A stretch of 64,000 nt of DNA from assembly GCA_030603885.1 (NCBI GenBank), contig JAUVWW010000001.1, forward strand, positions 135,242-199,241, read 5' to 3'. Within the stretch, counting starts at the first letter, position 1, and each line of letters starts with the position of its first letter. The notes beneath the pieces are model-generated. The model was not told the origin of the DNA. It saw only the letters and a program-made list of their open reading frames with translations, and ran no database searches. Of this stretch, positions 31,905 through 49,356 are shown one piece after another. The position numbers and the translations under genes were made by a program. The DNA comes from a bacterium. GTDB lineage: Bacteria > Patescibacteriota > JABMPQ01 > JAUVWW01.

Positions 31905-32188
31905 AGCCAAAAAAGAAAAATAGATATGCAAAGGAAAAATTTCTTTCTAAAAGGCAGCTTGAAGAAATAGAAAAACCTAGCAGGTGGCCAAAGAAAAAGA
32001 GAGGACCAGAGACAGAAAGTTATATTAAGCGGAGGAAAAAACTTTAATCACATGTATAATTTTAATCTATTAGTCTCTTTCGGCTGGGGTTTATTTGGCC
32101 GAGCCAAAAGAGAAATTAAAGAAAGTTTTAAAATAAATTAGATATATGTCTTACAAAGTTTTAGCTTGTGTCTAGATAATATTAATTT

Positions 32189-33607
32189 ATGATTGAAAGA
32201 AAAATTACAATCGATCCAAAAAGTGAAATTTTCCGTTGGGGTCCAGTTCCTGGAAAATTTATTTATACGAGCCATTTTGTTGTAGTTAATTTTCGATACT
32301 TTTGTAAAAAATGGGGAGGTCAATGGCCAAAAACTTTATTTTTATTTAAAAACAATAGGATGGTTTGGATTAATGAATATCCTTCCTTACGTTCTATGGG
32401 AAGGCAAGTCTTTAAAAATTGGATGCTTCCAGTTAAAAAAAGAAAACGAGTTTGGACTGACTGGCAAAAAGCTTTAAGGGAATTAATCTCACTTGAAAAA
32501 GATATCGATATTCTAAATCTAAAGAAGTTAAACAATCAAGAACTTTTAAAACTCTGGCAAGAGATAACCCAAAAATATATTAATTTTTGGGTTCCTTCAA
32601 CTGTACCTGAGTTAGGAAATTATGGCGCTGATTTTTGGTTAAAGGAACGCCTTAAAATATATATAAAAAGTGAGCAAGAGTTGCTAGATGCTTTAGAAAT
32701 TCTTACCGCTCTAACTAAACCCTCATTTTACCAAGAAGAAATAATAGATCTTTGTCGAGCAAAATCTTTAGAAGAGCATCAAAAGAAATATTTTTGGCTT
32801 AGAAATAGCTATGCTGGGGTTAAGACTTTATCCTTAGATTACTTTAGGAAAAGAAGGAAACAAATAAAGAATCCAAAAAGAGAAATAAAAAGAATTAAAA
32901 GAAATTTAGCATTGGCTAAGTTACGAAAAAGCAGATTAGCCAAGCGTTTAAAACTAGATCAACTAACTATAAAAATAGCCTGGAGTATAAGTGAAGGAAT
33001 GGTCTGGCAAGACCAAAGAAAAAAATACATCTTTATTACTATTTATTATCTTCACCAAATCTTGAAAGAAATAGGAAAACGCTTTCGCTATGCGTCTTAC
33101 GATTTAGAATATCTTTGGCCAAAAGAGATAGAAGAAATTATAAAAGGAAAAAATTTCAAAAAAATAATAAAGCAAAGAAAAAAAGGATTTGGAGTACATT
33201 TCTATAAATCAGTAAGAAATTTAAATCCAAAGGAAGTAAAAAAGTATTGGAAATCATTTCAAGAAAAACCCATCTTTAAAAAGATTAAGGTAATTCAAGG
33301 TCTACCAGTAAGCAAAGGCATAGCAAAAGGAAAAATTAGGATCCTAATGGATCCCTTTAAGATTTCTAAATTTAAAAAAGGAGAAATTCTAGTAGCTCCC
33401 ATGACTTCTCCAGAGTATATTTTTGTTATGCAAAAAGCCAAGGCAGTAATAACTGATGCCGGTGGTCTAACTTGCCATGCTGCCATTGTCTCCAGAGAAC
33501 TAAAAATTCCTTGTGTTGTTGGTACTAAAATCGCAACCAAAGTTTTGAAAGACGGAGATAAAGTAAAAGTAGACGCAAATAAAGGAATAATTAGAAAAAT
33601 AAAATGA
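32189..33607 (+). CDS. PEP-utilising-enzyme mobile (phosphohistidine swivel) domain protein, array paralog 1; divergent N-terminal domain
   Basis: C-terminal DAGGLTCHAAIVSRELKIPCVVGTKIATKVLKDGDKVKVDANKGIIRKI matches the PEP-utilisers His-domain signature (GG.TsHAAI.aRElGIP); N-domain carries the family motifs K.YFW..N.Y and W.D.RK...KEIGKRF. Confidence 0.75.
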   Translation: MIERKITIDPKSEIFRWGPVPGKFIYTSHFVVVNFRYFCKKWGGQWPKTLFLFKNNRMVWINEYPSLRSMGRQVFKNWMLPVKKRKRVWTDWQKALRELISLEKDIDILNLKKLNNQELLKLWQEITQKYINFWVPSTVPELGNYGADFWLKERLKIYIKSEQELLDALEILTALTKPSFYQEEIIDLCRAKSLEEHQKKYFWLRNSYAGVKTLSLDYFRKRRKQIKNPKREIKRIKRNLALAKLRKSRLAKRLKLDQLTIKIAWSISEGMVWQDQRKKYIFITIYYLHQILKEIGKRFRYASYDLEYLWPKEIEEIIKGKNFKKIIKQRKKGFGVHFYKSVRNLNPKEVKKYWKSFQEKPIFKKIKVIQGLPVSKGIAKGKIRILMDPFKISKFKKGEILVAPMTSPEYIFVMQKAKAVITDAGGLTCHAAIVSRELKIPCVVGTKIATKVLKDGDKVKVDANKGIIRKIK

Positions 33608-33611
33608 AATA

Positions 33612-35078
33612 ATGAAAATTAATTTTAGAAAAATTTTCTCAAGAAGACTTTATCGACAAGGTGGTGCTTGTATACCCTTTTTTATTGCTACACCATATTG
33701 TGGTGCTTTTACTAGAACTAAGGGCGGTTTTTTCTACAATAAAGGTGAACTAAATTATGGATATTTCTTTAAAGACAACGAGAAAAGAATTGCTAGTAGA
33801 GCATTAGCTAGGCAAGAAAAGGATAAAAATTATGTCAAAAAGCTTTTTAGAAAATGGAAAGATGTAGCAGATAAACAATTAAGCTTTGGTGATAAGATTA
33901 ATAAACTAGATTTTGCTAAACTTTCTTGGAAAGAACTAGTCAAATTACATCAGAAATTTGATAACTATTATTTTAGATTTTGGTATCATGCTGTGATTAT
34001 TGAAGCTTACGATCCTTGGGGTAATGAACTATTAAATGAGAAGATTCAAAAATACTATGGGAAAGCCTTACCCTTTGAAGTAGTAAAGACTATGACTGCC
34101 CCTTCGGAGATTTCTTATCTAAATCAAGAATATTTAGAACTATTTAATCTTGCAAAAATTGCTTTTAAAAACAAAATAGATTTAACAAAACCCAAAGAAT
34201 TTCTAAATTTTTATAAGAAGCTTGGAAAACACAAAGATAAATATTATTGGACAAATAATGGCTGGGTCAAAGTTTATAGATTGAATGAAATTTATTTCTT
34301 AAAAAGAATAAAGGCAATAATAAGAAATTTTTCCCAAGCCAGAAAAAAGGCTAAAAAGATAATTTTTGAACAAAAATACATCAAAAACAGAAAGAAAAAT
34401 TATTTAAGGAAATATCGATTTAGTAAAGAATTAATAAATATATTTTATTACTTTGAATTTTTGAATTTCTGGCGAGATTTTCGGAAGACATACGGATGCA
34501 AATATCACGATGTTTTGTACAGATTTCTTAAAGAATATTCTCGAAGAACTAATATTTCCATAAATTATTTAAAATCTTTAACTGCTCTGGAGATAGGCAA
34601 AATTAAAAATTATACAAAGAAGGATATTAAAAAATTGAAAGAAAGATGGGAATGTTGTTTTATGCTCTATCGGAGGCCAAAGAATTATTTATGGTTTATA
34701 GGAAAGGAGGCTGAAAAGTTGATTAAACTTTTAGATAAGTATTTTATTGGAGGGAAAAGAGAAATTAGAGGAAGCATTGGAAATAAAGGAAAAATTAAAG
34801 GAATGGTTAGACTTATTAAAACGATTAGTGATTTTAAAAAGATGAAAAAAGGTGATATTTTAGTTTCGGTGGCAACGAGAACAGAATATGCTCCGATTAT
34901 GAATAAAGCTAAGGCTATAATCACAGACGAAGGAGGAATAACCTGCCATGCAGCAATTGTTTCTCGGGAACTTAGTATCCCCTGCATTGTAGGGACTCAA
35001 ATTGCCACCAAAGTTTTAAAAGATGGAGACAAAGTAGAGGTAGACGCAAATAAAGGAATAATTAAAAAAATAAGATGA
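33612..35078 (+). CDS. PEP-utilising-enzyme swivel-domain protein, array paralog 2
   Basis: C-terminal DEGGITCHAAIVSRELSIPCIVGT...VDANKGIIKKI; divergent N-domain with YYW.NNGW motif. Confidence 0.75.
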   Translation: MKINFRKIFSRRLYRQGGACIPFFIATPYCGAFTRTKGGFFYNKGELNYGYFFKDNEKRIASRALARQEKDKNYVKKLFRKWKDVADKQLSFGDKINKLDFAKLSWKELVKLHQKFDNYYFRFWYHAVIIEAYDPWGNELLNEKIQKYYGKALPFEVVKTMTAPSEISYLNQEYLELFNLAKIAFKNKIDLTKPKEFLNFYKKLGKHKDKYYWTNNGWVKVYRLNEIYFLKRIKAIIRNFSQARKKAKKIIFEQKYIKNRKKNYLRKYRFSKELINIFYYFEFLNFWRDFRKTYGCKYHDVLYRFLKEYSRRTNISINYLKSLTALEIGKIKNYTKKDIKKLKERWECCFMLYRRPKNYLWFIGKEAEKLIKLLDKYFIGGKREIRGSIGNKGKIKGMVRLIKTISDFKKMKKGDILVSVATRTEYAPIMNKAKAIITDEGGITCHAAIVSRELSIPCIVGTQIATKVLKDGDKVEVDANKGIIKKIR

Positions 35079-36565
35079 AAATTATTGAAAACAATCTCAA
35101 TAAGAAATGGTATGATGAGTTTGCCGAAGCATCACCTATATTCGCTAGTTTACCAGCACACGCCATAGGAGATAAAATAATTTCTTTAAAACATCAATAT
35201 AAATGTGTACTTAATTTTTATTTCCAAAATAAAACACATTGGCTGACCTTGATTGAGGATCAAGATTTAATATCTGAAGAAATTTTAAATAACTATTTAA
35301 AAAATCGGAAATATTATAGACCTTGGTTTTTGAAATGGAAGAAAAAAACTAAAAGATTTAATTCCTTATTTAAAAAGATCAAAAAAACTGATTTATCTTT
35401 ATTATCCGAGAAAAAGTTATTGAGATTGCATCAAAAAGTTTGGAAAAGTCTAATAAAAACAAGGAAGATTGATATGCTTATAGACCCTTTTATTTTTGGT
35501 TCTGAAAGGAGAATGATTAAAGAGCTGAATAAATTTTGCACTTCTCATAATATTAGAAATGTGGGTCGTTTATATACGCTCTTAACCTCGCCAGAAAAAG
35601 AATCACTCATCAATAAATTTGAACTAAGTTTAATTAAATTAACTAAACGAATTAGAAAAAAGAAAATACCTAGATATTTACCGGATGAACCATCACAACT
35701 TTCTAAACTGCCCGCCATCAAAAACCATCTGGATAAATATTGTTGGATTAAAGGCAATTGGGGTAGAAGTAATGAATACACAGTCAGTATTCTTATTAAC
35801 GAAATAAAAGAATTATTGTCAAAAAATTTATCTCAACTTGAGCAACAGAAGAAAAAAATATTTTCTTTAAATAAAGAAAAAAGAAAGAAAATACTTAAGA
35901 AATTTAAATTTAATAAAATTATTAAAGCACTTTCGGATTTAACTGTCTTTTTCTCTTTTTGGCATGATTTAAGAAAAGAAAATGCCTTAAAATATATTTA
36001 TTATGAATCCTTATTTTTAAAAGAATTTTCTAAAAGATTTAAATTAAATTTTCAAGATTTGCATTTATTTGACATATCAGAAATTGAAAAAATATTAAAA
36101 AATAGAAAAAAATTTAATTTTGAAATCAAAAGAAGAAAAAAATTATTTTTAACAGTCCATGCTAACAATAGAATATATCTTTTATTTGGCTCACAAGTTA
36201 AAAAATATTTAGACAAAATTTTAGGCTTTGAAACAAAGAAAATTGATACTATAAAAGGTGTTAGTGCATTCAAGGGTAAAGTCAAAGGTAAGGTAAAGAT
36301 AATACATGAATATAAAGATTTTTATAAATTTAAAAAGGGAGATATTTTAGTAACGGGTATGACCAGACCAGAATTTATAGCAATTGCAAAAAAGGCTAAA
36401 GCTATTATTACTAATGAAGGAGGTATCACCTGCCATGCTGCCATTATAAGTAGAGAATTAGAGATTCCTTGTGTGGTAGCAACTAGAGTAGCAACTAAGA
36501 TACTAAAAGATGGAGATAGGGTAGAGGTGGATGCAAATAAAGGAATAATTAGAAAAATAAGATGA
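35075..36565 (+). CDS. PEP-utilising-enzyme swivel-domain protein, array paralog 3
   Basis: C-terminal NEGGITCHAAIISRELEIPCVVAT...VDANKGIIRKI; start overlaps upstream stop. Confidence 0.75.
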   Translation: MKIIENNLNKKWYDEFAEASPIFASLPAHAIGDKIISLKHQYKCVLNFYFQNKTHWLTLIEDQDLISEEILNNYLKNRKYYRPWFLKWKKKTKRFNSLFKKIKKTDLSLLSEKKLLRLHQKVWKSLIKTRKIDMLIDPFIFGSERRMIKELNKFCTSHNIRNVGRLYTLLTSPEKESLINKFELSLIKLTKRIRKKKIPRYLPDEPSQLSKLPAIKNHLDKYCWIKGNWGRSNEYTVSILINEIKELLSKNLSQLEQQKKKIFSLNKEKRKKILKKFKFNKIIKALSDLTVFFSFWHDLRKENALKYIYYESLFLKEFSKRFKLNFQDLHLFDISEIEKILKNRKKFNFEIKRRKKLFLTVHANNRIYLLFGSQVKKYLDKILGFETKKIDTIKGVSAFKGKVKGKVKIIHEYKDFYKFKKGDILVTGMTRPEFIAIAKKAKAIITNEGGITCHAAIISRELEIPCVVATRVATKILKDGDRVEVDANKGIIRKIR

Positions 36566-37203
36566 AACAAAAAAGAAAAACTCTCTATCTTTGGGATTTA
36601 GCTAATACTTTATTTCCCGAAGAATGGGATAAGGAAAAAACAGGCTTTGCTAATTATGATGAGTATGTTAAGTCTCTTAGTTATGATTTAGAGAAAATTT
36701 CTCCCTTAGAATATGAAAGATGCTACGAAAAGCCTTATAAAGAAGGACTCTTTAGATTAAAAATTGCCACTGGTTTCCGTAAGGTTCTCTCTTGGACAAA
36801 AAATAACGAGGCTTTTACTACTGGGGTAAAAGAGCAAATAGATTGGCGGGCAGAGTATCTTTTGAAAAAATACAGCTTTGATATAAGAAAATATCTTAAA
36901 AAAATCCATTCTACTTTTGACTTTGCTCCAACAAACAAAAAAACTAGAGAAATGATTATTTCTTTAGTTAAGAAAAAACTTCAGGAAGGATTTAACGAGA
37001 TTGTTTATACTGATGATAAGTTAGAAAATTGTTTATTTTTTCTCGAAGCAGTCAGGAAAACAAAAGAAAGGGTGGGAAATTTCCAACTTCGAATTTATAA
37101 TATTAAAAATGACGATAGAGGAATAAGAAATAAAGGAACCTATTGGGAAGCAGGAAATTTATACGATATAATGAGTAATGAAAAAAAAGAAAGAAAATCA
37201 TGA
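36562..37203 (+). CDS. array-embedded accessory protein, weak HAD-like N-terminal motif
   Basis: LYLWDLANTLF resembles HAD motif I (hhhhDxDxTL) but the second Asp is Ala; translationally coupled at both ends (ATGA overlaps). Confidence 0.3.
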   Translation: MKQKRKTLYLWDLANTLFPEEWDKEKTGFANYDEYVKSLSYDLEKISPLEYERCYEKPYKEGLFRLKIATGFRKVLSWTKNNEAFTTGVKEQIDWRAEYLLKKYSFDIRKYLKKIHSTFDFAPTNKKTREMIISLVKKKLQEGFNEIVYTDDKLENCLFFLEAVRKTKERVGNFQLRIYNIKNDDRGIRNKGTYWEAGNLYDIMSNEKKERKS

Positions 37204-38774
37204 AATATCAAAAGGGACTAATACAAAAAAATCTAAGAATACTTCAAGAAAAAGAATGGTATCATCAACGCTTTGATGGTTGCCCTCAGTTTATTTTACT
37301 TATTTCCGAAGCTGAGATGAGACCAGAAAGAAGAAAGTTAAAAGGCGGAAACTTCACTAGCCATATTGTATTTTTTAAGAATGATAGAGTGGATTGGTAT
37401 ATTGACCAAGAAGACATAAAAAGAATTACTAACCTGGTAATTAAAGCTAGTTTAAAAAACCAAAAAATTAGCAAGGATTTAATTAAAAAATGGAAAAGGG
37501 ACGAAAAGATCTTTTATGATTACTGCAGGAGATTGAAGAATATAAATCTAGATATGTTATCTAATGAAAGGTTAAAACATTTATATCATGATTTTGTTGA
37601 AGTCTATTGTAAAACTGTAACAAACAGTTCTGTTATTGATGGATTTGCTTTAGGAACAGATCGGATTATTCAAGAAAAAATAACAAATTTTTTAAAGAGT
37701 AAAAGACTACAAAAATATCAGTATCGCTATTTTACCAGGCTTACTGCTCCTACTAGTCAGTCCTTTATTAATGAAGCGGAAATTTCTCTCCTAAAGGTTG
37801 TTCAGTTAATAAATAGGACTAAAGCTATAAAAAGATTAGTATTACGAGAGAAAAGTATAGATCAGATTTTAAAAGAGTTAAAACAATTTAAGAGAATATA
37901 CCAAGCATTAAAACAACATCAAAAGAGCTATTTCTGGAGTAAAAATAATTACGTGGACGATAATGTGCTTGATCTAAACCATTTTACAAAGGAAATAAAA
38001 GGGATACTTAGAGGAAAGGTTAATATCACAAAAGAAATAAATCGGATCTCAAGCACGCCCATTAAAAATAAGATATCAAAAGATAAATTAATTAAAAGAT
38101 TAAAACCACCAAGAATAATTAGAAATCTAATAACCATTTCAGGTAATTTTACAGATTGGCAAGACGAAAGAAAGAGAAAGACTTATTGGTTAACCCATTG
38201 CTTAAGTCTTATTATTAACGAGATTGCTAAGAGATTCGACTATTCTCTACATGGAATAAAGTATTTAGTTCCGCCAGAGGTAGAAAATCTATTTACAAAA
38301 AAGAGGAAAATTACTCTAGCAGAAACTAGGGCAAGAATTAGAAAATCGCTTTTTTATCAAAAAGGGCAAAATTATGAGATATTGTCTGGAAATAAAGCTG
38401 AGAAACTAAGAAAGGTAATTTTACGGAAAAAGAGAGAGGAGGTTATTCATGACTTTCGAGGTCTTCCAGCTTGCCGAGGAAAAGTAAGAGGTAAGGTCAA
38501 GATAATTAAAAGTGCTAGAGAAGCTGGAAAAGTAGAGAAAGGTAATATCTTGGTGGCTGTGATGACACGTCCAGACTATATAGTAGGAATTAAAAAGGCA
38601 GCTGCCATAGTAACTGATGAAGGTGGAGTTACTTGTCATGCAGCTATAGTAAGTCGAGAACTTAGTATCCCTTGTGTGATAGGTACTAAAATCGCTACCA
38701 AAGTCTTAAAAGATGGAGATTACATAGATGTCAATGCTAGTCACGGAATAATAACTATTATAAAAAGAAAATAA
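37200..38774 (+). CDS. PEP-utilising-enzyme swivel-domain protein, array paralog 4
   Basis: C-terminal DEGGVTCHAAIVSRELSIPCVIGTKIATKVLKDGD; N-domain motifs YFWSKNNY and WQDERK...NEIAKRF. Confidence 0.75.
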   Translation: MKYQKGLIQKNLRILQEKEWYHQRFDGCPQFILLISEAEMRPERRKLKGGNFTSHIVFFKNDRVDWYIDQEDIKRITNLVIKASLKNQKISKDLIKKWKRDEKIFYDYCRRLKNINLDMLSNERLKHLYHDFVEVYCKTVTNSSVIDGFALGTDRIIQEKITNFLKSKRLQKYQYRYFTRLTAPTSQSFINEAEISLLKVVQLINRTKAIKRLVLREKSIDQILKELKQFKRIYQALKQHQKSYFWSKNNYVDDNVLDLNHFTKEIKGILRGKVNITKEINRISSTPIKNKISKDKLIKRLKPPRIIRNLITISGNFTDWQDERKRKTYWLTHCLSLIINEIAKRFDYSLHGIKYLVPPEVENLFTKKRKITLAETRARIRKSLFYQKGQNYEILSGNKAEKLRKVILRKKREEVIHDFRGLPACRGKVRGKVKIIKSAREAGKVEKGNILVAVMTRPDYIVGIKKAAAIVTDEGGVTCHAAIVSRELSIPCVIGTKIATKVLKDGDYIDVNASHGIITIIKRK

Positions 38775-38775
38775 T

Positions 38776-40296
38776 ATGATAGAGCCAAAATATTTTGTTC
38801 AAAGAATGGATGGGGTACTTTTGCTCTCTTTTCTTGCTTCTGAAGCAGAAGTGGTTAATGTTAAAAAAGATTTTGGCATGGGGAAGCCTTTCTGTCCTGG
38901 TGTTAATGCTCACAAGAGGATTAATTATTTTGGTTATGTTTGGAAGGACATACACAAACAAGCAGAATTTATTATTAGAAAAATAAAGAAAAATCCTCGT
39001 TTTTTATCTGATCTTCTTAGAATGTGGAAAGAGAGAGTAAAGAGATTAAGAAATTTTGAAGAAAGAATTTTAAAGACAAGTTTGAAAAATATTTCTGACA
39101 AAGAACTTGTAGCTATTTTTCAGCAGTTAATCAATCTTTATCAAGAAGAATATAGTCCAGCTCTTTTGTGTGATCCTTTTGGTCTCCATACAGAGAAAAT
39201 TATTACTGATAAGCTTAGAAAGATTGTAGAAAGGAGAGAAGAGCCAAGAAAATTTGCTAAATATTTAGAGATTTTAACTACACCTGCAAAAAGATCCTTT
39301 GCTAATGAAGAAGAACTCGATCTTTTAATACTAGCTCAGAAAATAAAGAGGAATAAAAAATTAGCAAGTATCTTGAAGAAAGATGTAAGAAAAGCAAAAA
39401 AAGGGTTAGTTAAACATCCTTACTTAGAAAAACTCATTAGGAAACATATGAAGAAATTTTTCTGGATTGAAAACAGTTATGCCCAGGGAATAAAATTAAA
39501 AGAAGGTTATTTCTTAAAAAAAATTAGAAGGTATTTAAAAGAGAGTATTAATCTCTCAAAGAAAATCAAAGAACTTAAAAATTTGTCTAAAAATTACAGA
39601 AGAAAAAAGAAAACCCTAATTAAAAAGCTTAATTTAGATAAAAAATTTAGAAAATTATTAGAATGGACAGAAGTTTTTGGCTATCTTCACGATGCTAGAA
39701 AAGGAGTGATGATGGAGGCACATTATTATATTACCTTACTGCTCAAAGAAATCGGTAGAAGACTTAGATTAACTCTTCAGGAAATGTACTATACCGATCA
39801 TCACAAGATTGAAGAAATGCTTCTTAAGAAAAAAATCAACAAAAAACTTCTTCGAGAGAGAATAAGAATGTGTACTTACCTAATTTGGCCAACAAAATAT
39901 AGAATTTTAACAGGCAGAAAAGCAGAGTGGTGGCACAAAGAACTTTTAGGAGAAAGAAAAATGGTTATTGGTGAAATCAAAGGAGTTAGTGCTTCAAGTG
40001 GGGTAACGGTAGGTAAAGCCAAAATAGTAAAAGATGTTAAAGATGGATATAAAATAAAGAAAGGAGATATTCTAGTTACTGGTATGACCCGTCCTCACTG
40101 GATGCCTTTTATTAGAAAAGCTAAAGCCCTAGTCACTGATGAAGGAGGAATCACCTGTCATGCGGCCATTGTAGCCAGAGAGCTTGGCATTCCTTGTATC
40201 ATTGCTACAAAAGTGGCTACCAAAATATTGAATGATGGATATTTAGTCGAAGTGAACACTAATCATAATAGAGTGAAGATTCTAAAGAGAGTTTAA
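38776..40296 (+). CDS. PEP-utilising-enzyme swivel-domain protein, array paralog 5
   Basis: C-terminal DEGGITCHAAIVARELGIPCIIATKVATKIL; N-domain homologous over its length to paralog 6. Confidence 0.75.
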   Translation: MIEPKYFVQRMDGVLLLSFLASEAEVVNVKKDFGMGKPFCPGVNAHKRINYFGYVWKDIHKQAEFIIRKIKKNPRFLSDLLRMWKERVKRLRNFEERILKTSLKNISDKELVAIFQQLINLYQEEYSPALLCDPFGLHTEKIITDKLRKIVERREEPRKFAKYLEILTTPAKRSFANEEELDLLILAQKIKRNKKLASILKKDVRKAKKGLVKHPYLEKLIRKHMKKFFWIENSYAQGIKLKEGYFLKKIRRYLKESINLSKKIKELKNLSKNYRRKKKTLIKKLNLDKKFRKLLEWTEVFGYLHDARKGVMMEAHYYITLLLKEIGRRLRLTLQEMYYTDHHKIEEMLLKKKINKKLLRERIRMCTYLIWPTKYRILTGRKAEWWHKELLGERKMVIGEIKGVSASSGVTVGKAKIVKDVKDGYKIKKGDILVTGMTRPHWMPFIRKAKALVTDEGGITCHAAIVARELGIPCIIATKVATKILNDGYLVEVNTNHNRVKILKRV

Positions 40297-40300
40297 AAAT

Positions 40301-41770
40301 ATGGCTAGACAAACAAAATATTTTGACCAAATGAGAGACGGTTTTCCATTTACTGCTATAACTTCTACTAGAGCTCAAATGGTTAATTTAAAAAGTGATA
40401 CAGGAATTTTTAAGCCGGAGTTTATTTGTATATTCAGAAATAAAACTATCCGCTTTATTTATCCTTGGGCCGAATTACACAAAATAGGTAAAGAGATAAA
40501 TGATCTTTTGTTAAAAAACCAAAAGCTTATAGACGAACTTATTCAGACTTGGCAAAGGAAATACCAGCTTTTAAATATATTTTGCCAAGACATAGATAGG
40601 TTAAATTTAAAAAACCTATCAGATAGGGGGCTGGTTAGCCTCTTAGACAACTTGCTGAACATTTTCCAAAATCAATTTAGCATTCCTTGTCTGGTAGAAT
40701 TTTTTAGTTTACATAATGAGCAAGTGATTATTAAAAAACTAATAAAGATATTAAATAAACGAAATGAACTTAAATTATTGCCTGATTATCTTACAACTTT
40801 AATCGTGCCAACCAAGTATTCCTTCAACAACGAAGAGGAACTAGATCTTTTAAAAATAGCTATAATGATAAAGCAAAAAAGAAATAAAAAATTAATTGAG
40901 GAAAGACTAAGACAACATGTAGATAATTACTTTTGGATTGAAAATAACTATGCTCAAGGAATAAAACTTAAAAAAAGCTATTTTGTAAAGAGAATAAATA
41001 GGCTAATTAAAAAGGATAACTTAAGAAAGAAATTAAAAAACATAAAAGACTTGTCTAATAAAAATAAACAAAGAAAAAGAAGATTAATCCGAAAACTAAG
41101 ATTAGATAAAAAGACTATTGAGCTGTTGAACTTAATAGATATTTTTACTTATATTCAGGACAGGCGTAAAGCATCTCAAATGAAAACCTTTTATTATCTT
41201 CAAGAAATGTTAAAAGAAATTGGAAGAAGATTAAAGTTGAGTCAAGAGGAAATGAATTATGCTGTTCATTACGAAATTCCAGAGATGTTACTAAAAAGAA
41301 AAGTAGATGGAAGGATGTTAAAAGAAAGAATGAAATATTGTATCTCTATAGAAACATATAGAAATGATAAATATAAATACAAGATTTTAACAGGGGGGAG
41401 AGCTAAAAAGTTTGAAGAGAAGTTATTTGGAAAAGAAGCTAAGAAAAAGATATCTGACCTACAAGGCATCTGTGCTTCTCAAGGTGTTGTGGTAGGCAAA
41501 GCGAAAATTATTAAGACAATAAAAGATTTCTCCAAGATAAGAATTGGTGACATATTAGTCACTTCTATGACTACTCCCGAGTTCGTTCCTATATTAAAGA
41601 AAGTTAAAGGTATAGTTACTGACGAAGGAGGAATTACTTGCCACGCTGCCATTATTTCTAGAGAATTAGCTATCCCTTGTGTAGTTGGCACTAATATTGC
41701 TACTAAAATTTTAAAAGACGAAGAACTGATAGAAATCCGAGCCCATCATGGAATCGTAAAAAGGATTTAA
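40301..41770 (+). CDS. PEP-utilising-enzyme swivel-domain protein, array paralog 6
   Basis: C-terminal DEGGITCHAAIISRELAIPCVVGTNIATKIL; YFWIENNYAQGIKLKK motif shared with paralog 5. Confidence 0.75.
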   Translation: MARQTKYFDQMRDGFPFTAITSTRAQMVNLKSDTGIFKPEFICIFRNKTIRFIYPWAELHKIGKEINDLLLKNQKLIDELIQTWQRKYQLLNIFCQDIDRLNLKNLSDRGLVSLLDNLLNIFQNQFSIPCLVEFFSLHNEQVIIKKLIKILNKRNELKLLPDYLTTLIVPTKYSFNNEEELDLLKIAIMIKQKRNKKLIEERLRQHVDNYFWIENNYAQGIKLKKSYFVKRINRLIKKDNLRKKLKNIKDLSNKNKQRKRRLIRKLRLDKKTIELLNLIDIFTYIQDRRKASQMKTFYYLQEMLKEIGRRLKLSQEEMNYAVHYEIPEMLLKRKVDGRMLKERMKYCISIETYRNDKYKYKILTGGRAKKFEEKLFGKEAKKKISDLQGICASQGVVVGKAKIIKTIKDFSKIRIGDILVTSMTTPEFVPILKKVKGIVTDEGGITCHAAIISRELAIPCVVGTNIATKILKDEELIEIRAHHGIVKRI

Positions 41771-41872
41771 TTATCTTAAACTTCATACTAAAAAGGGTAT
41801 TCCAGATAATTCCTCAGACATGAGTCGCAAAAGAAGTTTTAAGATGATAAGATATAATTGATAATTAAATAA

Positions 41873-43405
41873 TTGTTAACCAAAAAATATATGCCAGCAG
41901 CAGTAACAAGATCAGGCCCATGGAGAATAAAGCCATCAGGTAAATTACCTATCTTTTTAAGGTTCATGATCAACTCGAGTTTTGATCACAAAATCGCCAA
42001 TAAAGTAGGTTTTAAACATCATATTGTTAATCGGGTTTATCTTAATCATATGATTTACTGGCCAGCTAAAGAATATGATCTATTTGAAAAGGAGATTATT
42101 AATAATGCCAAAAATAAAAAGGGCTGGTTTGAAAACCTCTGCAAAAGAGAGCTTAGAAAATGTGAGAAATTGTATAAATTAGGTCTAGAACTAAAAAGAA
42201 TGGATTGGTCTAAGAAATCTAACCAGTATATGAAAGAGGTATTAACTAGTTTATTAGAGAAATACAGGTATGTTGCTTGCCCGTGGTATACCCAATATCC
42301 TTTAGATGAATATTTTGAAAGTACGATAGAAGAACAACTTGTTAAACATATACCGGCTAGCCACCCAGATTTCAGAAAATTTGTCTTAATTTTTACTGAT
42401 CCAAAAGAAATGACCGAGGTTAGTGAGGAAAAATGGAAGTTAATGAAAATAGCTAAAGAATTTAAGAAAAGAGGGGAGAAATTATCTAAATTATCCAAAT
42501 GGGCAAAAGAGAAAATAGAACGTCATTTAGATAAATTTGCCTATATTAATAGGGGACTGGCTACTAGTAAGCCATACACATTCAAGGACATGGTTGATCG
42601 AATCAGAGAGGCTTGGAAAGATAAAAAAGGATTAAATACACTAATTTATGATAGCTCACCTAAAAAAATAGAAGAAGATTATAAATGGGCTCTAGAAAAG
42701 ATCAAACCAAAACCAAAATTTAAAAAAATTATCACTCAAGCTAGATTACACTCCTACACTAGAAATCGTCGCGTAGAAGCCTTTTTTATGGCAGATTATG
42801 GAGCTAGTTTCATGTATCACGAGATTGCTAAAAGAGCTCACTTTAACCCAAACTGGATTATGGAAGTTTCTGTCCCAGAAATGTTTGGTGCTTTGGAAAA
42901 TAAACCTTTGCCTGATAAAAGGGAAATGCAGAGAAGATTTAAAAACTATGCTATGATTGTTCGCAATGCCAAGACCAAGATGATTGTTGATCCAAAAGAA
43001 ATCAAGAAGTTAGAAAAGAGATATTATGTCAAAGTTAGCAAGGTTAGAGAGATCCATGGAAGAATGGCTTGTCTAGGAGGTATTATTAAAGGTAAAGCAA
43101 GGGTGTGTTTAGATAAAAAAGAGATTGGTAAGGTTAAAAGAGGTGACATTTTGATAGCACAGTTTACTACACCAGACTTTGTACCAGCCATGGAAAAAGC
43201 AGCTGCTATTGTTGCTGATCAAGGTGGTCTGTCATCCCATGCTGCCATTGTTTCCCGAGAGCTGGGCGTACCCTGTGTAATTGCCACAGAAAATGCTACC
43301 CGAGTAATCAAGGATAATGATTTGTTAGAGGTCGATGCTCGAAAAGGAGTAGTTAAAATTTTAAGAAGAGTAAAAAGGAGGAAAAACTATGAGAAAATTT
43401 GTTAA
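41873..43405 (+). CDS. PEP-utilising-enzyme swivel-domain protein, array paralog 7 (most divergent N-domain)
   Basis: C-terminal DQGGLSSHAAIVSRELGVPCVIAT (Ser-Ser-His variant closest to the canonical TSHAAI of PpsA/EI). Confidence 0.7.
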   Translation: MLTKKYMPAAVTRSGPWRIKPSGKLPIFLRFMINSSFDHKIANKVGFKHHIVNRVYLNHMIYWPAKEYDLFEKEIINNAKNKKGWFENLCKRELRKCEKLYKLGLELKRMDWSKKSNQYMKEVLTSLLEKYRYVACPWYTQYPLDEYFESTIEEQLVKHIPASHPDFRKFVLIFTDPKEMTEVSEEKWKLMKIAKEFKKRGEKLSKLSKWAKEKIERHLDKFAYINRGLATSKPYTFKDMVDRIREAWKDKKGLNTLIYDSSPKKIEEDYKWALEKIKPKPKFKKIITQARLHSYTRNRRVEAFFMADYGASFMYHEIAKRAHFNPNWIMEVSVPEMFGALENKPLPDKREMQRRFKNYAMIVRNAKTKMIVDPKEIKKLEKRYYVKVSKVREIHGRMACLGGIIKGKARVCLDKKEIGKVKRGDILIAQFTTPDFVPAMEKAAAIVADQGGLSSHAAIVSRELGVPCVIATENATRVIKDNDLLEVDARKGVVKILRRVKRRKNYEKIC

Positions 43406-44414
43406 AAGTGAAGAGATAACGCCCGAAATAAGAGAACAAAGAAAGCCGCGATTGGAACTTTGGATTACTCGTCATGCTAATCGGGCCCCAACAGGCGAGT
43501 TGACGCCAGAAGGAATAGCTACTGTAAGAGCTAAAGGGGAAAAGGTTGATGCTGAAGTTCTAAAAGGATATTCTAGTTTTGAGAAGAGTGATCGGACCTA
43601 TAAAACTCTTCAAAAAATTAGTAAAGAAAGCAAAATTAAGTCTCCATCAACAGAGGGTTTATATCAAACTCGACGGAGAGTAGGTCTCTATTATGATGTA
43701 GTCGGTCCCTTGCAATCGCGAATCAAAGCTCAGACTAAATTGATTAATGAGATGGTGAAAAAAGATTACCCCGATTATGACCCTGAGTCTAAGGATCCAA
43801 AATGGGCTAAAATCCGTGAAAGATATCAGCCCATTGGCATTCGTAATGTAATAGCTGATAAGGAAATATCTCATGTATTAGCTATGGGCGCAGCCTATCA
43901 ATTTTTCAAAATGGCAGAGATTGGTGAGAGATATATTGCTCGGCGAAAAAGTGCTCTTAAAAGAGGTGAAAAAGGTGCTAGACCAATAGAGAAAGATATT
44001 ATTTTAAATGAGGGAACGCACGGTGGTTTTATTGATTTAATGCTTAAGAAAACTATGATTAGGGTTAAGCCAGATGGAAACGAAAAGATAGGTTTTGACC
44101 TCAGCCGGGATAAAAAGGGTCTGATTGTCTTCGAGAAAGTAATGGGAGATGTGATAAGACCAACAGAGTCTATTAAGACAGGCTATCCAGTGGGTGAAAA
44201 GTTACCAGAGAGATTACCTATTTCTTTTGAGCAGGATCGTTTTAAAGAAGAGAAGTGCTATATAAGTATACCTAGAGTTAAATTATTAGCAGAACAATTT
44301 AGAGCTTATCTTGAACAGTTAGGAAAATGGAATAAAGGAGAAATAGACGAAAAAGAACTCGTTTTAGTAATCAATAGATTAAGAGAAGAGTTCGAGAAAG
44401 AGAAGAAATCGTAA
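43389..44414 (+). CDS. histidine phosphatase superfamily protein (histidine-acid-phosphatase-like RHxxRxP motif)
   Basis: ITRHANRAPTGELTPEG matches the RHGxRxP catalytic motif of branch-2 histidine phosphatases (compare AppA SRHGVRAPT); start overlaps the end of paralog 7 by 17 nt. Confidence 0.5.
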   Translation: MRKFVKSEEITPEIREQRKPRLELWITRHANRAPTGELTPEGIATVRAKGEKVDAEVLKGYSSFEKSDRTYKTLQKISKESKIKSPSTEGLYQTRRRVGLYYDVVGPLQSRIKAQTKLINEMVKKDYPDYDPESKDPKWAKIRERYQPIGIRNVIADKEISHVLAMGAAYQFFKMAEIGERYIARRKSALKRGEKGARPIEKDIILNEGTHGGFIDLMLKKTMIRVKPDGNEKIGFDLSRDKKGLIVFEKVMGDVIRPTESIKTGYPVGEKLPERLPISFEQDRFKEEKCYISIPRVKLLAEQFRAYLEQLGKWNKGEIDEKELVLVINRLREEFEKEKKS

Positions 44415-44480
44415 TTTAATAGAAATATATCTAAAGAGGGAGGTTTTACTTGCCATTGTTGTAGGAATTAAAAATAAAAA

Positions 44481-44515
44481 CAGCCAAAATTCGGATAAAC
44501 CATGGCTGTTTTTTT
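44481..44515 (+). terminator. candidate rho-independent terminator (CAGCCA...TGGCTG stem followed by TTTTTTT)
   Basis: 6-bp perfect inverted repeat with long loop followed by a 7-T run, downstream of the 43389..44414 gene. Confidence 0.45.
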
Positions 44516-44561
44516 AATATAATTTATCTAAAAGCAGTCTGTCAAACAGTCTGCCTTAATT

Positions 44562-44590
44562 TTGTCCAAAACTTTAAAAAATGCTATTAT
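44562..44590 (+). promoter_or_regulatory. candidate sigma70 promoter for apt (TTGTCC -35, 17-nt spacer, TGcTATTAT extended -10)
   Basis: Hexamers read from sequence, 28 nt upstream of apt ATG. Confidence 0.35.
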
Positions 44591-44618
44591 GCTAGCACAG
44601 AGACATAAAGTTTAGTTC

Positions 44619-45137
44619 ATGACATACAATCTAAAATCTAAAATTCGCTCTATCCTTGATTGGCCTAAAAAAGGTATTGTTTTTCGAGATATCACACCTG
44701 TCTTGGAAAATGCAAAATTGTTTCGATATCTGATTGATCAGATGGGTAAGCCTTACATTAAAAAGAAAATTGATATGGTAGTAGGTATTGATGCTCGTGG
44801 TTTTATTTTAGCCGCAGCCTTGGCTTACAAATTAAAAACAGGCCTGGGCATAGTGCGTAAAAGTGGTAAATTACCTCATAAAACTATAAAGAAAAAGTAC
44901 TCTTTAGAATATGCTTCTAATGTTTTGGAAATGCATCACGATACTATTAAACCTGGACAGAAGGTTTTGTTAGTTGATGATTTATTAGCTACAGGAGGAA
45001 CAATGAAAGCTACGGTTGATCTGGTCAAGAAATTAGGTGGAAAAGTGGTTGGAATCGACTTCTTTATCGAGCTAAAAGACCTAAAAGGAAGAAAAAAGCT
45101 AAAAGGATACCCTGTGAAATCACTTATTAATTTTTAA
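44619..45137 (+). CDS. apt: adenine phosphoribosyltransferase
   Basis: PRPP-binding motif VLLVDDLLATGGT; 172 aa. Confidence 0.85.
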   Translation: MTYNLKSKIRSILDWPKKGIVFRDITPVLENAKLFRYLIDQMGKPYIKKKIDMVVGIDARGFILAAALAYKLKTGLGIVRKSGKLPHKTIKKKYSLEYASNVLEMHHDTIKPGQKVLLVDDLLATGGTMKATVDLVKKLGGKVVGIDFFIELKDLKGRKKLKGYPVKSLINF

Positions 45138-45151
45138 AGAAGGTAATAAAT

Positions 45152-46087
45152 ATGTATATTCTTCCCTTTGAAAAAATTTCAAAAAAAGATGTAGATATAG
45201 CCGGAGGAAAAGGAGCCTCTTTGGGAGAGATGACCAAGGCTAAAATACTTGTTCCCCCTGGCTTTATAGTTTTAGCCTCTGCTTTTGACAGGTTTCTTGA
45301 AGAAACAGATATTAATCTAGAAGTAAAGGCCCAGCTTAAAAAGGTTGATCCTAAAAAAACAACCACAGTAGACGATGCTTCCGAGGTGCTAAGACAGCTA
45401 ATCAATAGGTATAGCATGCCTAAAGATATAGAAAAGGCTGTTTTAGAGGCTTATGACAAGCTTAGAGCCAAATACGTGGCTGTGAGGAGCTCTGCTACAG
45501 CCGAAGACTCTAAAATAGCCTCTTGGGCAGGGGAGTTGGAGTCGTATTTAGGTATTACTAAAAAAGACCTTATCAATAAAGTTCAAAAATGTTGGTCTTC
45601 TTTATTTACCCCTCGAGCTATTTTTTATCGAATAGAAAAAGGACTGGATGGAAAAGAAGTTTCTGTAGCTGTGGTAGTCCAAAAAATGGTTGAGGCAGAG
45701 ACAGCTGGAGTAGTTTTTACAGCTCATCCTGTCACCAAGGACAAAAATCAAATGGTCATTGAGGCTTCTTATGGCCTAGGGGAGTCTGTAGTAGCAGGAA
45801 AAGTCACTCCCGATACTTATGTGCTAGATAAAAAAGATGAGACTATAATAGATATCAATATTAATGTTCAGACTACTCAAATCAAGAGAGTAGGGACCAA
45901 AACAAAAACTATACCTATTCCCAAGAAACTCCAAGACAAACAAGTTTTATTTGGAAAACAAATCATTAAACTAGCTAAAATTTGTAAAAAAATAGAAAAA
46001 CATTATAGCTTTCCTTGTGATATAGAGTGGGCGATAGAGAAGAATAAGATATACATCGTTCAGAGCCGACCCATCACTACCTTATAA
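45152..46087 (+). CDS. standalone PPDK_N / PEP-synthase-type ATP-grasp nucleotide-binding domain protein
   Basis: N-terminal ILPFEKISKKDVDIAGGKGASLGEM matches the PpsA/PPDK N-terminal nucleotide-binding domain; ends ..IVQSRPITTL at the canonical domain boundary; no His domain or PEP/pyruvate TIM barrel in this gene. Confidence 0.8.
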   Translation: MYILPFEKISKKDVDIAGGKGASLGEMTKAKILVPPGFIVLASAFDRFLEETDINLEVKAQLKKVDPKKTTTVDDASEVLRQLINRYSMPKDIEKAVLEAYDKLRAKYVAVRSSATAEDSKIASWAGELESYLGITKKDLINKVQKCWSSLFTPRAIFYRIEKGLDGKEVSVAVVVQKMVEAETAGVVFTAHPVTKDKNQMVIEASYGLGESVVAGKVTPDTYVLDKKDETIIDININVQTTQIKRVGTKTKTIPIPKKLQDKQVLFGKQIIKLAKICKKIEKHYSFPCDIEWAIEKNKIYIVQSRPITTL

Positions 46088-46093
46088 ATTTAT

Positions 46094-47146
46094 ATGGAGA
46101 AATTATTCAGTATATCAATAATTGATTTTAGTCTAATAATACTAGAATCATGGGATACTGGTTATTTTAACGAGATGAGGAGGCAACTTAATTTTGGATT
46201 CCCTCGTGTTTTCTTTTTTAGGACAAAGGCTGGTGTAAATATAATGCGTCCCGAGAAAGACCAGAGATCTTTTGAAAAATACATTCTCAGGGAAATTAAA
46301 AGCGATCCCAAATATTTATCTATCCGCTTGAAAAAAATTTTCAGGTATCTTGACGAGCTAAATAAGTCAAAAAAGAAAAAACTCAAAAAGGCAAGTAGTA
46401 AAGACCTATGGAATTGTGCTCAAAAAACATTCAAAATAATATATAAAATTCTACCAATGTATGTTGTGGTCTACTGGTTACTAAGTAGATCATATTTAAG
46501 AGAGTATGTGGATTATAAAGAAATGGAAAAAGCAAGAGTTAGAAGCGAGGGTTATTATGATATAGGAGATAAAATATTTAAAAAGATTTTTAAGAGTGCT
46601 ATAGCTGGCAGAAAGCAACTTTTAAATTATTTTAAAGTGATAAAGTTTGAAGAATTAAAAAAACTTTTGCTTAAAAAACAATTTCCTAAATTATCTGAAT
46701 TACGCAAGAGAAAAATAAATTATTTTCTGTTTAAAAACAATTTTTTATCTGGAAAACTAGAGCTAGATCGAACTCTAAAACGTTATGGTTTCAAATATCA
46801 ATCACCTAAACCAACTCTGGAAGATAGTGTGATCTATGGTCAGACTGCTACAAGAGGTAAGGCTAAAGGACATGTTAAAGTGATTTTAGGTAAAGATGAA
46901 CTCAAAAAAATCCGTAAAGGTGATGTGCTAGTAACTGCAACGACCTCTCCAGATTTTATCCCAGCCATGAAAATTTCAGCTGCTATAGTTACTGACTATG
47001 GTGGAATAGTGTGTCATGCTGCTATTGTTTCTCGAGAACTAAGAGTCCCTTGTATAATAGGCACTAAAATCGCTACCAAAGTTCTAAAAGACGGAGATAG
47101 GGTAGAGGTGGATGCCACAAAAGGAATAGTTAAAAAGATAAAATGA
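46094..47146 (+). CDS. PEP-utilising-enzyme swivel-domain protein, array paralog 8 (short N-domain), adjacent partner of the ATP-grasp gene
   Basis: C-terminal DYGGIVCHAAIVSRELRVPCIIGTKIATKVLKDGDRVEVDATKGIVKKIK; starts 6 nt after the ATP-grasp stop. Confidence 0.75.
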   Translation: MEKLFSISIIDFSLIILESWDTGYFNEMRRQLNFGFPRVFFFRTKAGVNIMRPEKDQRSFEKYILREIKSDPKYLSIRLKKIFRYLDELNKSKKKKLKKASSKDLWNCAQKTFKIIYKILPMYVVVYWLLSRSYLREYVDYKEMEKARVRSEGYYDIGDKIFKKIFKSAIAGRKQLLNYFKVIKFEELKKLLLKKQFPKLSELRKRKINYFLFKNNFLSGKLELDRTLKRYGFKYQSPKPTLEDSVIYGQTATRGKAKGHVKVILGKDELKKIRKGDVLVTATTSPDFIPAMKISAAIVTDYGGIVCHAAIVSRELRVPCIIGTKIATKVLKDGDRVEVDATKGIVKKIK

Positions 47147-47994
47147 AAAAACAAGCACAAATTGGAATTATTGGAGGATCTGGGCTTTACGAATTATTAG
47201 AAAAGCCAAAAGAAATAGAAGTAAAGACTCCTTATGGAAAGCCCTCGGACAAAATTACTTTAGGGGAATATGCTGGAAAAAAAGTTGCTTTTTTGCCCAG
47301 GCATGGAAAAAAGCATCAGTTTGCTCCTCATAAAATACCATACAGAGCTAATATCTATGCTTTTAAGAAACTAGGAATAAAAAGAATTATTGCTCCTTGT
47401 GCTGCAGGAAGCTTAACTCCAAAATTTAAACCAGGAGATTTTGTAATTTGTGATCAGTTTATAGATCGAACTAAGGGAAGAGAAGATACTTTTTATGATG
47501 ATCCTCAGAAGTCTCATAATTTAGCCAAAAGCCTGGGATTCAAAAAGAAAATTTCTTCAGTAGTCCATATCTCTTGCGTTGATCCTTATTGTCCCGAGCT
47601 ACGAAAGATAGCTTTTGATACTGCAAAAAAACTAAAAATTCAAGCTCATCCAAAAGGAACAGTAGTAGTAATTAACGGTCCCAGATTTTCTACTCGAGCC
47701 GAATCCCGCTTTTATTCTAGCCAAGGTTTTGATATAATTAATATGACCCAATATCCTGAAGTTGTATTAGCTAGAGAATTAGAGATGTGTTATGTGACTA
47801 TTGTTTTGATAACTGACTTTGATGCTGGACTTGAGGGAATGCAAGATATTTATCCAGTAACTTTCGAGGAATTGGTCAAAGTTTTTAAAGCCAATATTGA
47901 TAAAGTAAAGAAATTGATCTTCAAAATGATTGAAGATATGCCCGAGAAAAGAATATGTGAATGTGGACAGGCGCTAGAGAAAGCAATGGTATAA
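47143..47994 (+). CDS. mtnP: 5'-methylthioadenosine / purine nucleoside phosphorylase (PNP/MTAP family)
   Basis: IGIIGGSGLYEL N-terminus, FLPRHG phosphate-binding motif; ATGA overlap with upstream stop. Confidence 0.8.
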   Translation: MKKQAQIGIIGGSGLYELLEKPKEIEVKTPYGKPSDKITLGEYAGKKVAFLPRHGKKHQFAPHKIPYRANIYAFKKLGIKRIIAPCAAGSLTPKFKPGDFVICDQFIDRTKGREDTFYDDPQKSHNLAKSLGFKKKISSVVHISCVDPYCPELRKIAFDTAKKLKIQAHPKGTVVVINGPRFSTRAESRFYSSQGFDIINMTQYPEVVLARELEMCYVTIVLITDFDAGLEGMQDIYPVTFEELVKVFKANIDKVKKLIFKMIEDMPEKRICECGQALEKAMV

Positions 47995-48024
47995 CTAATA
48001 ACTTAATAATTAATACAAAAACCT

Positions 48025-49284: not shown

Positions 49285-49356
49285 AAAATTAAAAATGCAA
49301 AATTAAGAGAGCCTTTTTCGGCTCTTTTAATTTTTACTAGATCGCTGAGTTATTAG

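Follow-up and report, generated by a model that had tools for sequence, protein, structure and literature searches.

We analysed a 64,000-nucleotide stretch of a patescibacterial genome (GenBank assembly GCA_030603885.1, contig JAUVWW010000001.1, positions 135,242 to 199,241; hereafter the window) and found, at window positions 32189-47146, an array of eight genes for proteins with a phosphohistidine swivel domain together with one gene for an ATP-grasp protein, all on the same strand. This block probably specifies a dikinase system of the rifampin phosphotransferase (RPH) type that acts on small molecules and has two components in a one-to-many ratio. In the mechanism that we propose, the single ATP-grasp protein (45152-46087) would bind ATP and transfer the β-phosphate to a swivel histidine with the release of AMP and Pi, as in phosphoenolpyruvate (PEP) synthase, RPH and HpeHI. 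The charged swivel domain would be borne by eight separate proteins, and each swivel would swing back to the RPH-like N-terminal domain (N-domain) of its own protein, where it would phosphorylate the small molecule particular to that protein. We infer here that one ATP-grasp protein charges all of the acceptors and that their substrates are small molecules. The histidine-phosphatase-superfamily protein encoded in this block, and the HAD-IA phosphatases and small nucleotidyltransferases encoded in related loci elsewhere, probably act on the products. Several of these elements had been suggested in an earlier reading of the same DNA (the sequence-only reading), and its claims are taken up with the results that bear on them. 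Acceptor genes are named by their start position in the window.

All eight acceptor genes end in the PEP-utilizing mobile His domain, in agreement with the sequence-only reading. The C-terminal PF00391 matches range from E 6e-27 to 4e-23, with scores of 81-94 bits, where the gathering score is 23.1 bits. In an eight-way alignment, the catalytic His is invariant along with 24 further columns, and residues G425, G426, H430, A431 and A432 of the GG-x-[TS]-x-H-A-A motif are identical in all eight proteins. The catalytic His is also invariant across a 59-sequence alignment around the 41873 paralog. The swivel domains had been described as near-identical; their pairwise identity is, however, only 43-65%. 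Their closest sequence relative is an archaeal PEP synthase (PDB 8a8e, E 1e-41).

The block contains a single PF01326 gene, confirming the separate ATP-grasp gene of the sequence-only reading, and a home-made PPDK_N hidden Markov model (HMM) found no second copy in the 64-kb window. Among PDB sequences, the ATP-grasp protein matched archaeal PpsA (8a8e, E 2e-72) and a stand-alone 387-aa chain (9goj, E 5e-53), and it aligned end to end with RPH (5fbs, E 3e-59, aa 2-311 versus 4-316). The PF02896 TIM barrel is absent from every gene of the block, and a home-made TIM-barrel HMM gave no match in the 64-kb window. NCBIfam PpsA models scored 109-133 bits against cut-offs of 598-740. The missing TIM barrel and the missed PpsA cut-offs uphold the view that this locus is not a PEP synthase.

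A Pfam scan returned no match in the first ~385 residues of the acceptors. An HMM of the long N-domain, which spans ~385 aa, recognized the six long paralogs other than 41873 with E 5e-73 to 1e-117. Thus, the ~400-aa N-domain that had been assigned to all eight genes is found in seven of them, and the product of 46094 gave no N-domain HMM match. We predicted the structure of one long paralog (41873) with AlphaFold2 (AF2) from the 59-sequence alignment, and the model has a predicted local distance difference test score (pLDDT) of 91.7. A Foldseek search of the PDB with this model placed Listeria RPH on top (5fbu, 5hv1 and 5fbt, E 6e-14 to 2e-13), with a query-normalized template modelling score (TM) of 0.58-0.61 that spans the N-domain and the swivel at a sequence identity of 14-18%. 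Matches to PPDK, pyruvate kinase and Enzyme I reached TM values of at most 0.2, which corresponds to the swivel only. A comparison of AlphaFold models with RPH had been suggested as a check on the earlier proposal, and the best structural match is indeed RPH over both domains; the model accordingly contains an RPH-fold helical substrate-binding domain N-terminal to the swivel. Alignments to the NCBIfam RPH, PigC, RedH and PRK06241 models also reach 100-300 residues upstream of the swivel in several paralogs, below the cut-offs. In the 38776 protein, the RedH, PigC and RPH matches cover aa 185-503. The best scores remain far from the thresholds of these models (RIF_Ptrans_rph 88 of 999 bits, PigC 82 of 1300 and RedH 77 of 1350). 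Taken together, the fold match, the N-domain HMM shared among the long paralogs and the end-to-end ATP-grasp alignment support the predicted RPH plan with the ATP-grasp domain split off.

The N-domains of the window paralogs are only 14-28% identical to each other, except for 38776 and 40301 at 43%. Most long paralogs have their nearest N-domain relative outside this genome, at 31-55% identity, rising to 69% for the 38776 type and to 70-77% for the 41873 type. In this nearest-relative comparison, the window paralogs reach at most 29% among themselves, 40301 excepted. For example, 32189 has outside N-domain relatives at 35-41% versus at most 29% for the window paralogs, the closest relative of 33612 (P0091) is 55% identical in the N-domain, and 37200 has N-domain relatives in related loci (L009/L004) and in protein P0083 that are 44-53% identical. 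Orthologs of 38776 (P0003-P0006, P0012 and P0027) are 54-70% identical, and the 41873 type, which we call the core type, is conserved at 59-79% identity over its full length in many Patescibacteria. The best N-domain match of 40301 anywhere is its neighbor 38776 (about 40-43%), and 40301 is probably a lineage-specific duplicate of it. These sequence relationships indicate that the long paralogs are old subfamilies with putatively fixed roles and not a fast-diversifying array. Old, separately conserved subfamilies imply different, fixed specificities. The picture of eight diversified variants of one module therefore gives way to one of seven long proteins from old, separately conserved subfamilies, plus one protein of a short class.

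The short-class protein, encoded by 46094, consists of a reduced N-terminal part of ~245 aa and the swivel, and does not match the long N-domain HMM. We found 34 members of this class in other loci. In an hhalign comparison (probability 97%, E 8e-11), its N-terminal part matches the long N-domain over the initial ~100 columns, and aa 134-348 of the 46094 protein align with NCBIfam PRK06241 over the end of the RPH-type central domain and the swivel. In fused megaproteins of related genomes, the module that directly follows the ATP-grasp domain is of the short type. The short acceptor is thus, as judged from domain order, the usual direct fusion partner of ATP-grasp in these proteins. A rule that places short-class genes beside the ATP-grasp gene is only weakly indicated, as 6 of 18 adjacent genes are short versus 57 of 298 overall.

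We searched 1.84 billion representative sequences exhaustively with HMMER. At 50% identity, the N-domain family comprises 4,777 clusters when the threshold is E <= 1e-3, of which 906 reach E <= 1e-30, and the N-domain profile searches returned proteins of ~500 aa from Patescibacteria that are annotated as "PEP-utilizing enzyme". We then scanned related loci, taken as the best 80 of at least 599 matches, with home-made HMMs. These 80 loci (given as L numbers) come from many lineages of Patescibacteria, and 25 are DPANN archaea by record title (Woesearchaeota, Micrarchaeota, Nanoarchaeota and Iainarchaeum); a few labels of metagenome-assembled genomes among them (Gammaproteobacteria, Clostridium) are doubtful. 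The 57 non-redundant loci of at least 15 kb contain a median of 4 and a maximum of 13 swivel modules. Exactly one ATP-grasp gene was found within about 20 kb in 23 of the 37 loci with at least three swivel modules. One of the 37 has two, the second of which belongs to a full PEP synthase. A neighborhood survey of the ratio of ATP-grasp to swivel genes, as had been proposed, thus returned a 1:N ratio in 23 of 37 related arrays. A core block of genes for the conserved core-type acceptor, a HAD protein and the 341-aa phosphatase, with an ATP-grasp gene nearby recurs in L003, L005, L008, L010, L012, L014 and L023; the window version of this block is without the HAD gene.

In five loci (L048, L016, L041, L061 and L079), mostly from DPANN archaea, one ATP-grasp domain and 2-9 acceptor modules are joined in a single reading frame. 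These giant uninterrupted open reading frames (ORFs) contain 3-9 modules that bear a swivel, and the largest, in L048, runs from an ATP-grasp domain through nine swivel modules. Fused ATP-grasp/acceptor forms occur in relatives as L055, L066 and the megaproteins, and in the search of representative sequences, 2-4 N-domains occur together in single called proteins of 900-2,650 aa. A 750-aa protein from Parcubacteria GW2011_GWA2_48_9 (L075:4253-6505) fuses a HAD-IA hydrolase domain to an N-domain and a swivel, which constitutes a Rosetta-stone link of the array to its HAD phosphatase. These fusions are the strongest computational support for the view that one ATP-grasp protein would serve many acceptors and that HAD phosphatases would belong to the system. 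Two members of the family, P0056 (547 aa) and P0058 (556 aa), have an N-terminal MerR/HTH DNA-binding domain before the module, which suggests that they are regulatory offshoots. In L001, from a close relative, a complete three-domain PEP synthase (L001:1944-4337, 797 aa with TIM barrel) adjoins the acceptor array. This shows that true PpsA and array genes coexist, and the two should not be merged in annotation.

The accessory genes were characterized in the same way. The 341-aa protein (43389-44414) contains the RH-x-x-R motif together with a second Arg and a second His, with R28, H29, R32, R69 and H211 unchanged throughout alignments of 9 and of 12 sequences. Sequence searches of Pfam and the PDB with this family gave E values of ~0.06-1 only (dPGM, SixA, His_Phos_1), below threshold. 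A second phosphatase family of ~315 aa, present in six other arrays, scored 34.3 bits against a cut-off of 21.7 for Pfam His_Phos_1, and the two families align with an hhalign probability of 96.8% (E 2e-10). The AF2 model of the 341-aa protein (pLDDT 88.6) returned histidine phosphatases in all 50 of the PDB matches listed by Foldseek, the best at E 7e-6 with TM 0.42-0.44, and both the acid-phosphatase and the PGAM-like branches are among the matches listed. The link to the ~315-aa family and the fold search settle the predicted assignment of the 341-aa protein to the histidine phosphatase superfamily; motif, profile comparison and fold all agree with the histidine-phosphatase-like gene that had been noticed from the sequence. 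The 213-aa protein contains the strings WDxAxT, FTTG, TNxKT and VYTDDK in the order of the HAD motifs, with D-x-A-x-T and not DxDxT as motif I. It has no match in Pfam or NCBIfam, and hhalign gives no significant alignment (probability 18%) with the genuine HADs encoded in the arrays. It is 70% identical to a 208-aa gene product in L001/L002, and its family sits inside arrays in seven loci. Between the phosphatase and ATP-grasp genes lies an apt-like phosphoribosyltransferase gene (44619-45137), which does not belong to the recurrent accessory families of the other loci; its linkage to the array is local to this genome. The embedded phosphatase and small gene that had been described therefore stand, and the apt-like gene has to be added to them.

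The partners that recur in the arrays are HAD-IA phosphatases, the two histidine-phosphatase families and a 136-aa nucleotidyltransferase. The latter, a cytidylyl/adenylyltransferase-like protein with the motif FGTFDxxHxGH, occurs in five arrays. A kinase, a HAD phosphatase and a nucleotidyltransferase are also the enzyme types of the ADP-heptose pathway, which we mention as an analogy only. Lumazine synthase lies beside the arrays in two loci (one at L035:8707-9171), a flavokinase-EamA fusion lies beside the L001 array (L001:16684-17487), and the flavin-phosphate phosphatase RosC is among the fold matches of the 341-aa protein. Together with the nucleotidyltransferase, these genes are a possible lead to flavin or cofactor salvage.

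The NF006149-NF006153 (PRK08296-type) models, which we take to be PpsA/HpeH-type proteins, match the swivel part of the acceptors only (for example aa 364-471 versus 499-606 of 608), with scores of 56-106 bits against cut-offs of 578-730. A split of the dikinase into two proteins is itself published: PpsAB, CreHI, HpeHI and AcvAB are two-component small-molecule dikinases, the split enzymes PpsAB, CreHI and HpeHI require both components and the swivel His, and HpeI and HpeH are homologous to RPH domains (PMC12167813). As in the window, these systems have a separate ATP-grasp protein and a partner that carries a substrate domain and a C-terminal swivel. They differ in that theirs are 1:1 gene pairs, whereas the window has a ratio of 1:8. 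The known pairs lie in aromatic-catabolism operons with carboxylases, and the window block has no such pathway genes. The acceptors are ~500 aa here versus ~640 aa for HpeH (71.1 kDa), and the host lineages differ, being Patescibacteria and DPANN for the family described here. RPH (5FBS/5FBT/5FBU/5HV1) shares the ATP-grasp domain, the helical substrate-binding domain and the C-terminal swivel His domain; it is, however, a single chain of 860 aa, whereas the ATP-grasp component here is a separate gene product of 311 aa. The acceptors fall short of the NCBIfam RPH cut-offs by a factor of more than 10, and rifamycin is not indicated as a substrate. PigC and RedH (and HapC) have the same domain plan and swivel chemistry and give the longest profile alignments to the N-domain, but PigC and RedH are single chains in pigment gene clusters whose phosphorylation drives condensation. 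PEP synthase and PPDK contain the closest sequence relatives of the swivel and ATP-grasp domains, in the archaeal PEP synthase, but differ by the TIM barrel that is found nowhere in the block, where the domain preceding the swivel is a different, RPH-like one.

The arrangement had been taken for an undescribed system. That claim does not hold for the split, which is published for PpsAB, CreHI, HpeHI and AcvAB, and it appears to stand for the one-to-many design and for the family of substrate domains. In a literature search on the candidate phyla radiation (CPR) and DPANN that did not cover all journals, we found no earlier account of such arrays. A CPR resistome survey merely counts "rph"-like hits (PMC8651080). 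Thus, the 1:N ratio, the large acceptor family, the megaproteins, the recurrence in Patescibacteria and DPANN and the confinement of the sampled members to these two groups are apparently undescribed.

Several observations weigh against a one-to-many RPH-type dikinase. No ATP-grasp gene was found within 10 kb in 13 of the 37 arrays. The profile of the N-domain alone gave no match to PDB sequences even at E <= 10, which means that the relation to RPH is not demonstrable by sequence alone; the connection depends on a single predicted structure and on HMM alignments that are anchored in the swivel. Concerted evolution of the swivels within a genome would be expected if they co-adapted to one partner. 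Such co-adaptation to a shared partner was not seen: the mean swivel identity is 55% within loci versus 53% between loci, and only 4 of 136 swivels have their nearest neighbor in their own locus. HpeH alone moves phosphate between substrates (PMC12167813), implying that some acceptors may not need the ATP-grasp protein. A kinase beside phosphatases is here without a worked-out pathway logic. Finally, the window covers 64 kb of a 199-kb contig, and further ATP-grasp genes or a full PpsA could lie elsewhere.

We weighed four other explanations of the array. It is unlikely to be an antibiotic or xenobiotic inactivation battery in which each acceptor would phosphorylate and so inactivate a different toxic compound from hosts or neighbors, in the way that RPH inactivates rifamycins; the sequence-only reading had given such a system as its example. 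A multi-drug shield of this kind would be well served by diversified substrate domains, the closest solved structure is RPH, RPH belongs to a wide small-molecule dikinase family of which some members act on antibiotics (PMC12167813), and "rph"-like hits appear in CPR resistome surveys (PMC8651080). However, the NCBIfam RPH models score only 52-88 bits against 999/1700, and old orthologous subfamilies with a core paralog conserved at 59-79% fit metabolic substrates better than an arms race. Furthermore, the expansion of the family is as large in DPANN archaea, against which most antibacterials are not directed, and a resistance kinase would not need the recurrent phosphatases and nucleotidyltransferase. 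Less probable still is a set of PigC/RedH-like activating ligases, in which the phosphate would activate a carbonyl or hydroxyl group and be displaced by a second substrate to form a C-C, C-N or C-O bond. PigC and RedH also combine ATP-grasp, central domain and swivel, and the longest N-domain alignments are to RedH (aa 185-503 versus 544-878) and PigC (aa 244-502 versus 615-881), but the scores of 76-82 bits fall far below the curated cut-offs of 1300-1350. The window contains no genes for pyrrole or other secondary-metabolite biosynthesis, and the phosphatase neighbors suggest that the products are free phosphate esters.

We consider it very unlikely that the acceptors form a regulatory or sensory phosphorelay, in which they would sense ligands and, as phosphohistidine proteins, target other proteins and not small molecules, in the manner of VadK or Enzyme I of the phosphotransferase system. 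VadK is a PPDK-derived regulatory His kinase (PMC13400623), and the MerR/HTH domains of P0056 and P0058 would be in keeping with such a role. The N-domain fold is, however, that of a small-molecule-binding catalytic domain, the arrays contain no HPr-like or response-regulator partners, and eight to thirteen regulators of the same type would be out of proportion for a genome of roughly 1 Mb. The idea that the genes are functionless, decayed remnants of duplicated PEP synthase genes draws on the names given to relatives by the Joint Genome Institute (JGI) and NCBI, "phosphoenolpyruvate synthase/PEP-utilizing enzyme", and on the full-length PpsA that adjoins the array in L001. We give it next to no credence, as none of the eight ORFs is disrupted, the catalytic His is invariant in all of them, orthologs are 35-79% identical, the structural model is confident, the family comprises 4,777 clusters at 50% identity and the N-domain is not a PpsA domain. 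The conserved orthologs and the intact arrays elsewhere contradict the degraded pseudogene array that the sequence-only reading had named as its refuting case.

The coordinates of the block and of related features in other loci are collected in Table 1.

Table 1 Genes of the dikinase block (window positions) and related features in other loci (locus positions)
Feature	Position	Strand	Size	Evidence and remarks
Long acceptor 1	32189..33607	+	472 aa	PF00391 E 6e-27, aa 395-466; N-domain HMM E 5e-73
Long acceptor 2	33612..35078	+	488 aa	PF00391 E 3e-24; N-domain HMM E 1e-87
Long acceptor 3	35075..36565	+	496 aa	PF00391 E 2e-24; N-domain HMM E 2e-87
Accessory protein, conserved	36562..37203	+	213 aa	HAD-like motif strings; no Pfam or NCBIfam match
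Long acceptor 4	37200..38774	+	524 aa	PF00391 E 1.5e-24; N-domain HMM E 1e-94
Long acceptor 5 (P0001)	38776..40296	+	506 aa	PF00391 E 4e-23
Long acceptor 6	40301..41770	+	489 aa	PF00391 E 2e-23
Long acceptor 7, core type	41873..43405	+	510 aa from TTG	PF00391 E 8e-25
Predicted histidine-phosphatase-superfamily protein	43389..44414	+	341 aa	17-nt overlap with core acceptor gene
Phosphoribosyltransferase, apt-like	44619..45137	+	172 aa	PF00156 E 3.5e-21
Stand-alone ATP-grasp component	45152..46087	+	311 aa	PF01326 E 5e-101, profile positions 2-311 of 328
Short-class acceptor	46094..47146	+	350 aa	PF00391 E 3e-23; starts 6 nt past ATP-grasp gene
Nucleotidyltransferase	L012:8020-8430, L014:2984-3397, L044:12538-12927, L047:3092-3502, L077:8663-9073		136 aa	
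Giant ORF	L048:449-11734		3,761 aa	ATP-grasp then nine swivel modules; Woesearchaeota JAFGGS010000004.1
Giant ORF	L016:2781-9905		2,374 aa	
Giant ORF	L041:247-6228		1,994 aa	
Giant ORF	L061:5565-11624		2,019 aa	
Giant ORF	L079:386-5389		1,667 aa	

In the ORF list, the run of plus-strand genes extends without a break from 32189 to 49284 of the window. At the gene junctions of the block, neighbors overlap by 4 nt in four cases and by 17 nt in one; they are 1-6 nt apart in four and 14 nt apart in one, with two wider gaps between 41770 and 41873/41891 and between 44414 and 44619. Overlaps of 1-4 nt had been described throughout; this is correct for the four 4-nt junctions and does not apply to the 17-nt overlap and the gaps elsewhere. 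Long acceptor 3 (35075) overlaps both neighboring genes by 4 nt. The public gene call of the core acceptor starts at the ATG at 41891 and yields 504 aa (P0002). A promoter and terminator scan of 31300-49800 gave counts that were not above those of shuffled sequences and is therefore uninformative on transcription units. Rfam and tRNA scans found no RNA element in the block, the sole find being a tRNA-Gln at 25609. The G+C content of the window has its minimum of 0.28 at 34001-38000, within the acceptor genes at 33612-38774, versus 0.33-0.38 outside the block, and the products of these acceptor genes are very Lys-rich.

The block is flanked by housekeeping genes for a release factor, FtsEX, Fpg, Fmt, an MTAP-like phosphorylase and S-adenosylhomocysteine (AdoHcy) hydrolase. 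An origin as a mobile element or defence island was rejected, the flanks being ordinary housekeeping genes. The last swivel gene shares 4 nt with that for the MTAP-like purine nucleoside phosphorylase (47143-47994), after which comes the gene for AdoHcy hydrolase (48025-49284). Together with the apt-like gene, these place purine/methionine salvage genes in the gene run of the array, a linkage that was not seen in the other loci. Upstream of the array, across a 284-nt gap, lie genes for an archaemetzincin-type M54 peptidase (31386-31904) and a radical-SAM protein (29901-30839). A gene for a DUF87/TrwB-type ATPase, which is type IV secretion-like, is located a few kb from the array (26311-28785). 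PrgI, TraC-like and DUF87/P-loop_TraG ATPase genes occur near the array in L003 (L003:17288-20323), and the PrgI-type family is also found in L009, L075 and L077.

Within the reading of the block as a one-to-many RPH-type dikinase system, we favor fixed metabolic substrates (salvage, activation, envelope precursors) over antibiotics, on account of the old conserved subfamilies, the presence in archaea, the housekeeping neighborhoods and the phosphatase and nucleotidyltransferase partners. We tentatively suggest, at somewhat less than even confidence, that the system phosphorylates, traps or activates metabolites that a genome-reduced symbiont scavenges or uses as envelope precursors. A more general and still less certain proposal is that Patescibacteria and DPANN possess a modular platform, in which one ATP-grasp "charger" and 2-13 RPH-like modules might replace missing small-molecule kinases. 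The platform might take the form of gene arrays or of single megaproteins with up to nine modules. Its substrates might include vitamins, nucleosides, sugars and envelope precursors, with HAD and histidine phosphatases and nucleotidyltransferases processing the products.

Patescibacteria and DPANN have genomes of ~1 Mb with large gaps in known metabolism, and here ~15 kb and nine genes are devoted to one enzyme system. The annotation of such genes as "PEP synthase/pyruvate phosphate dikinase" is a common error that can lead to false calls of gluconeogenesis in metabolic reconstructions. If the proposed mechanism is true, this annotation would be corrected, the arrays would represent a new organization of kinase activity, in which a shared energy module is combined with exchangeable specificity modules, and they would provide clonable candidates for the missing salvage or activation steps of these symbionts. 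Such a modular design could also serve the engineering of ATP-driven phosphorylation of chosen small molecules.

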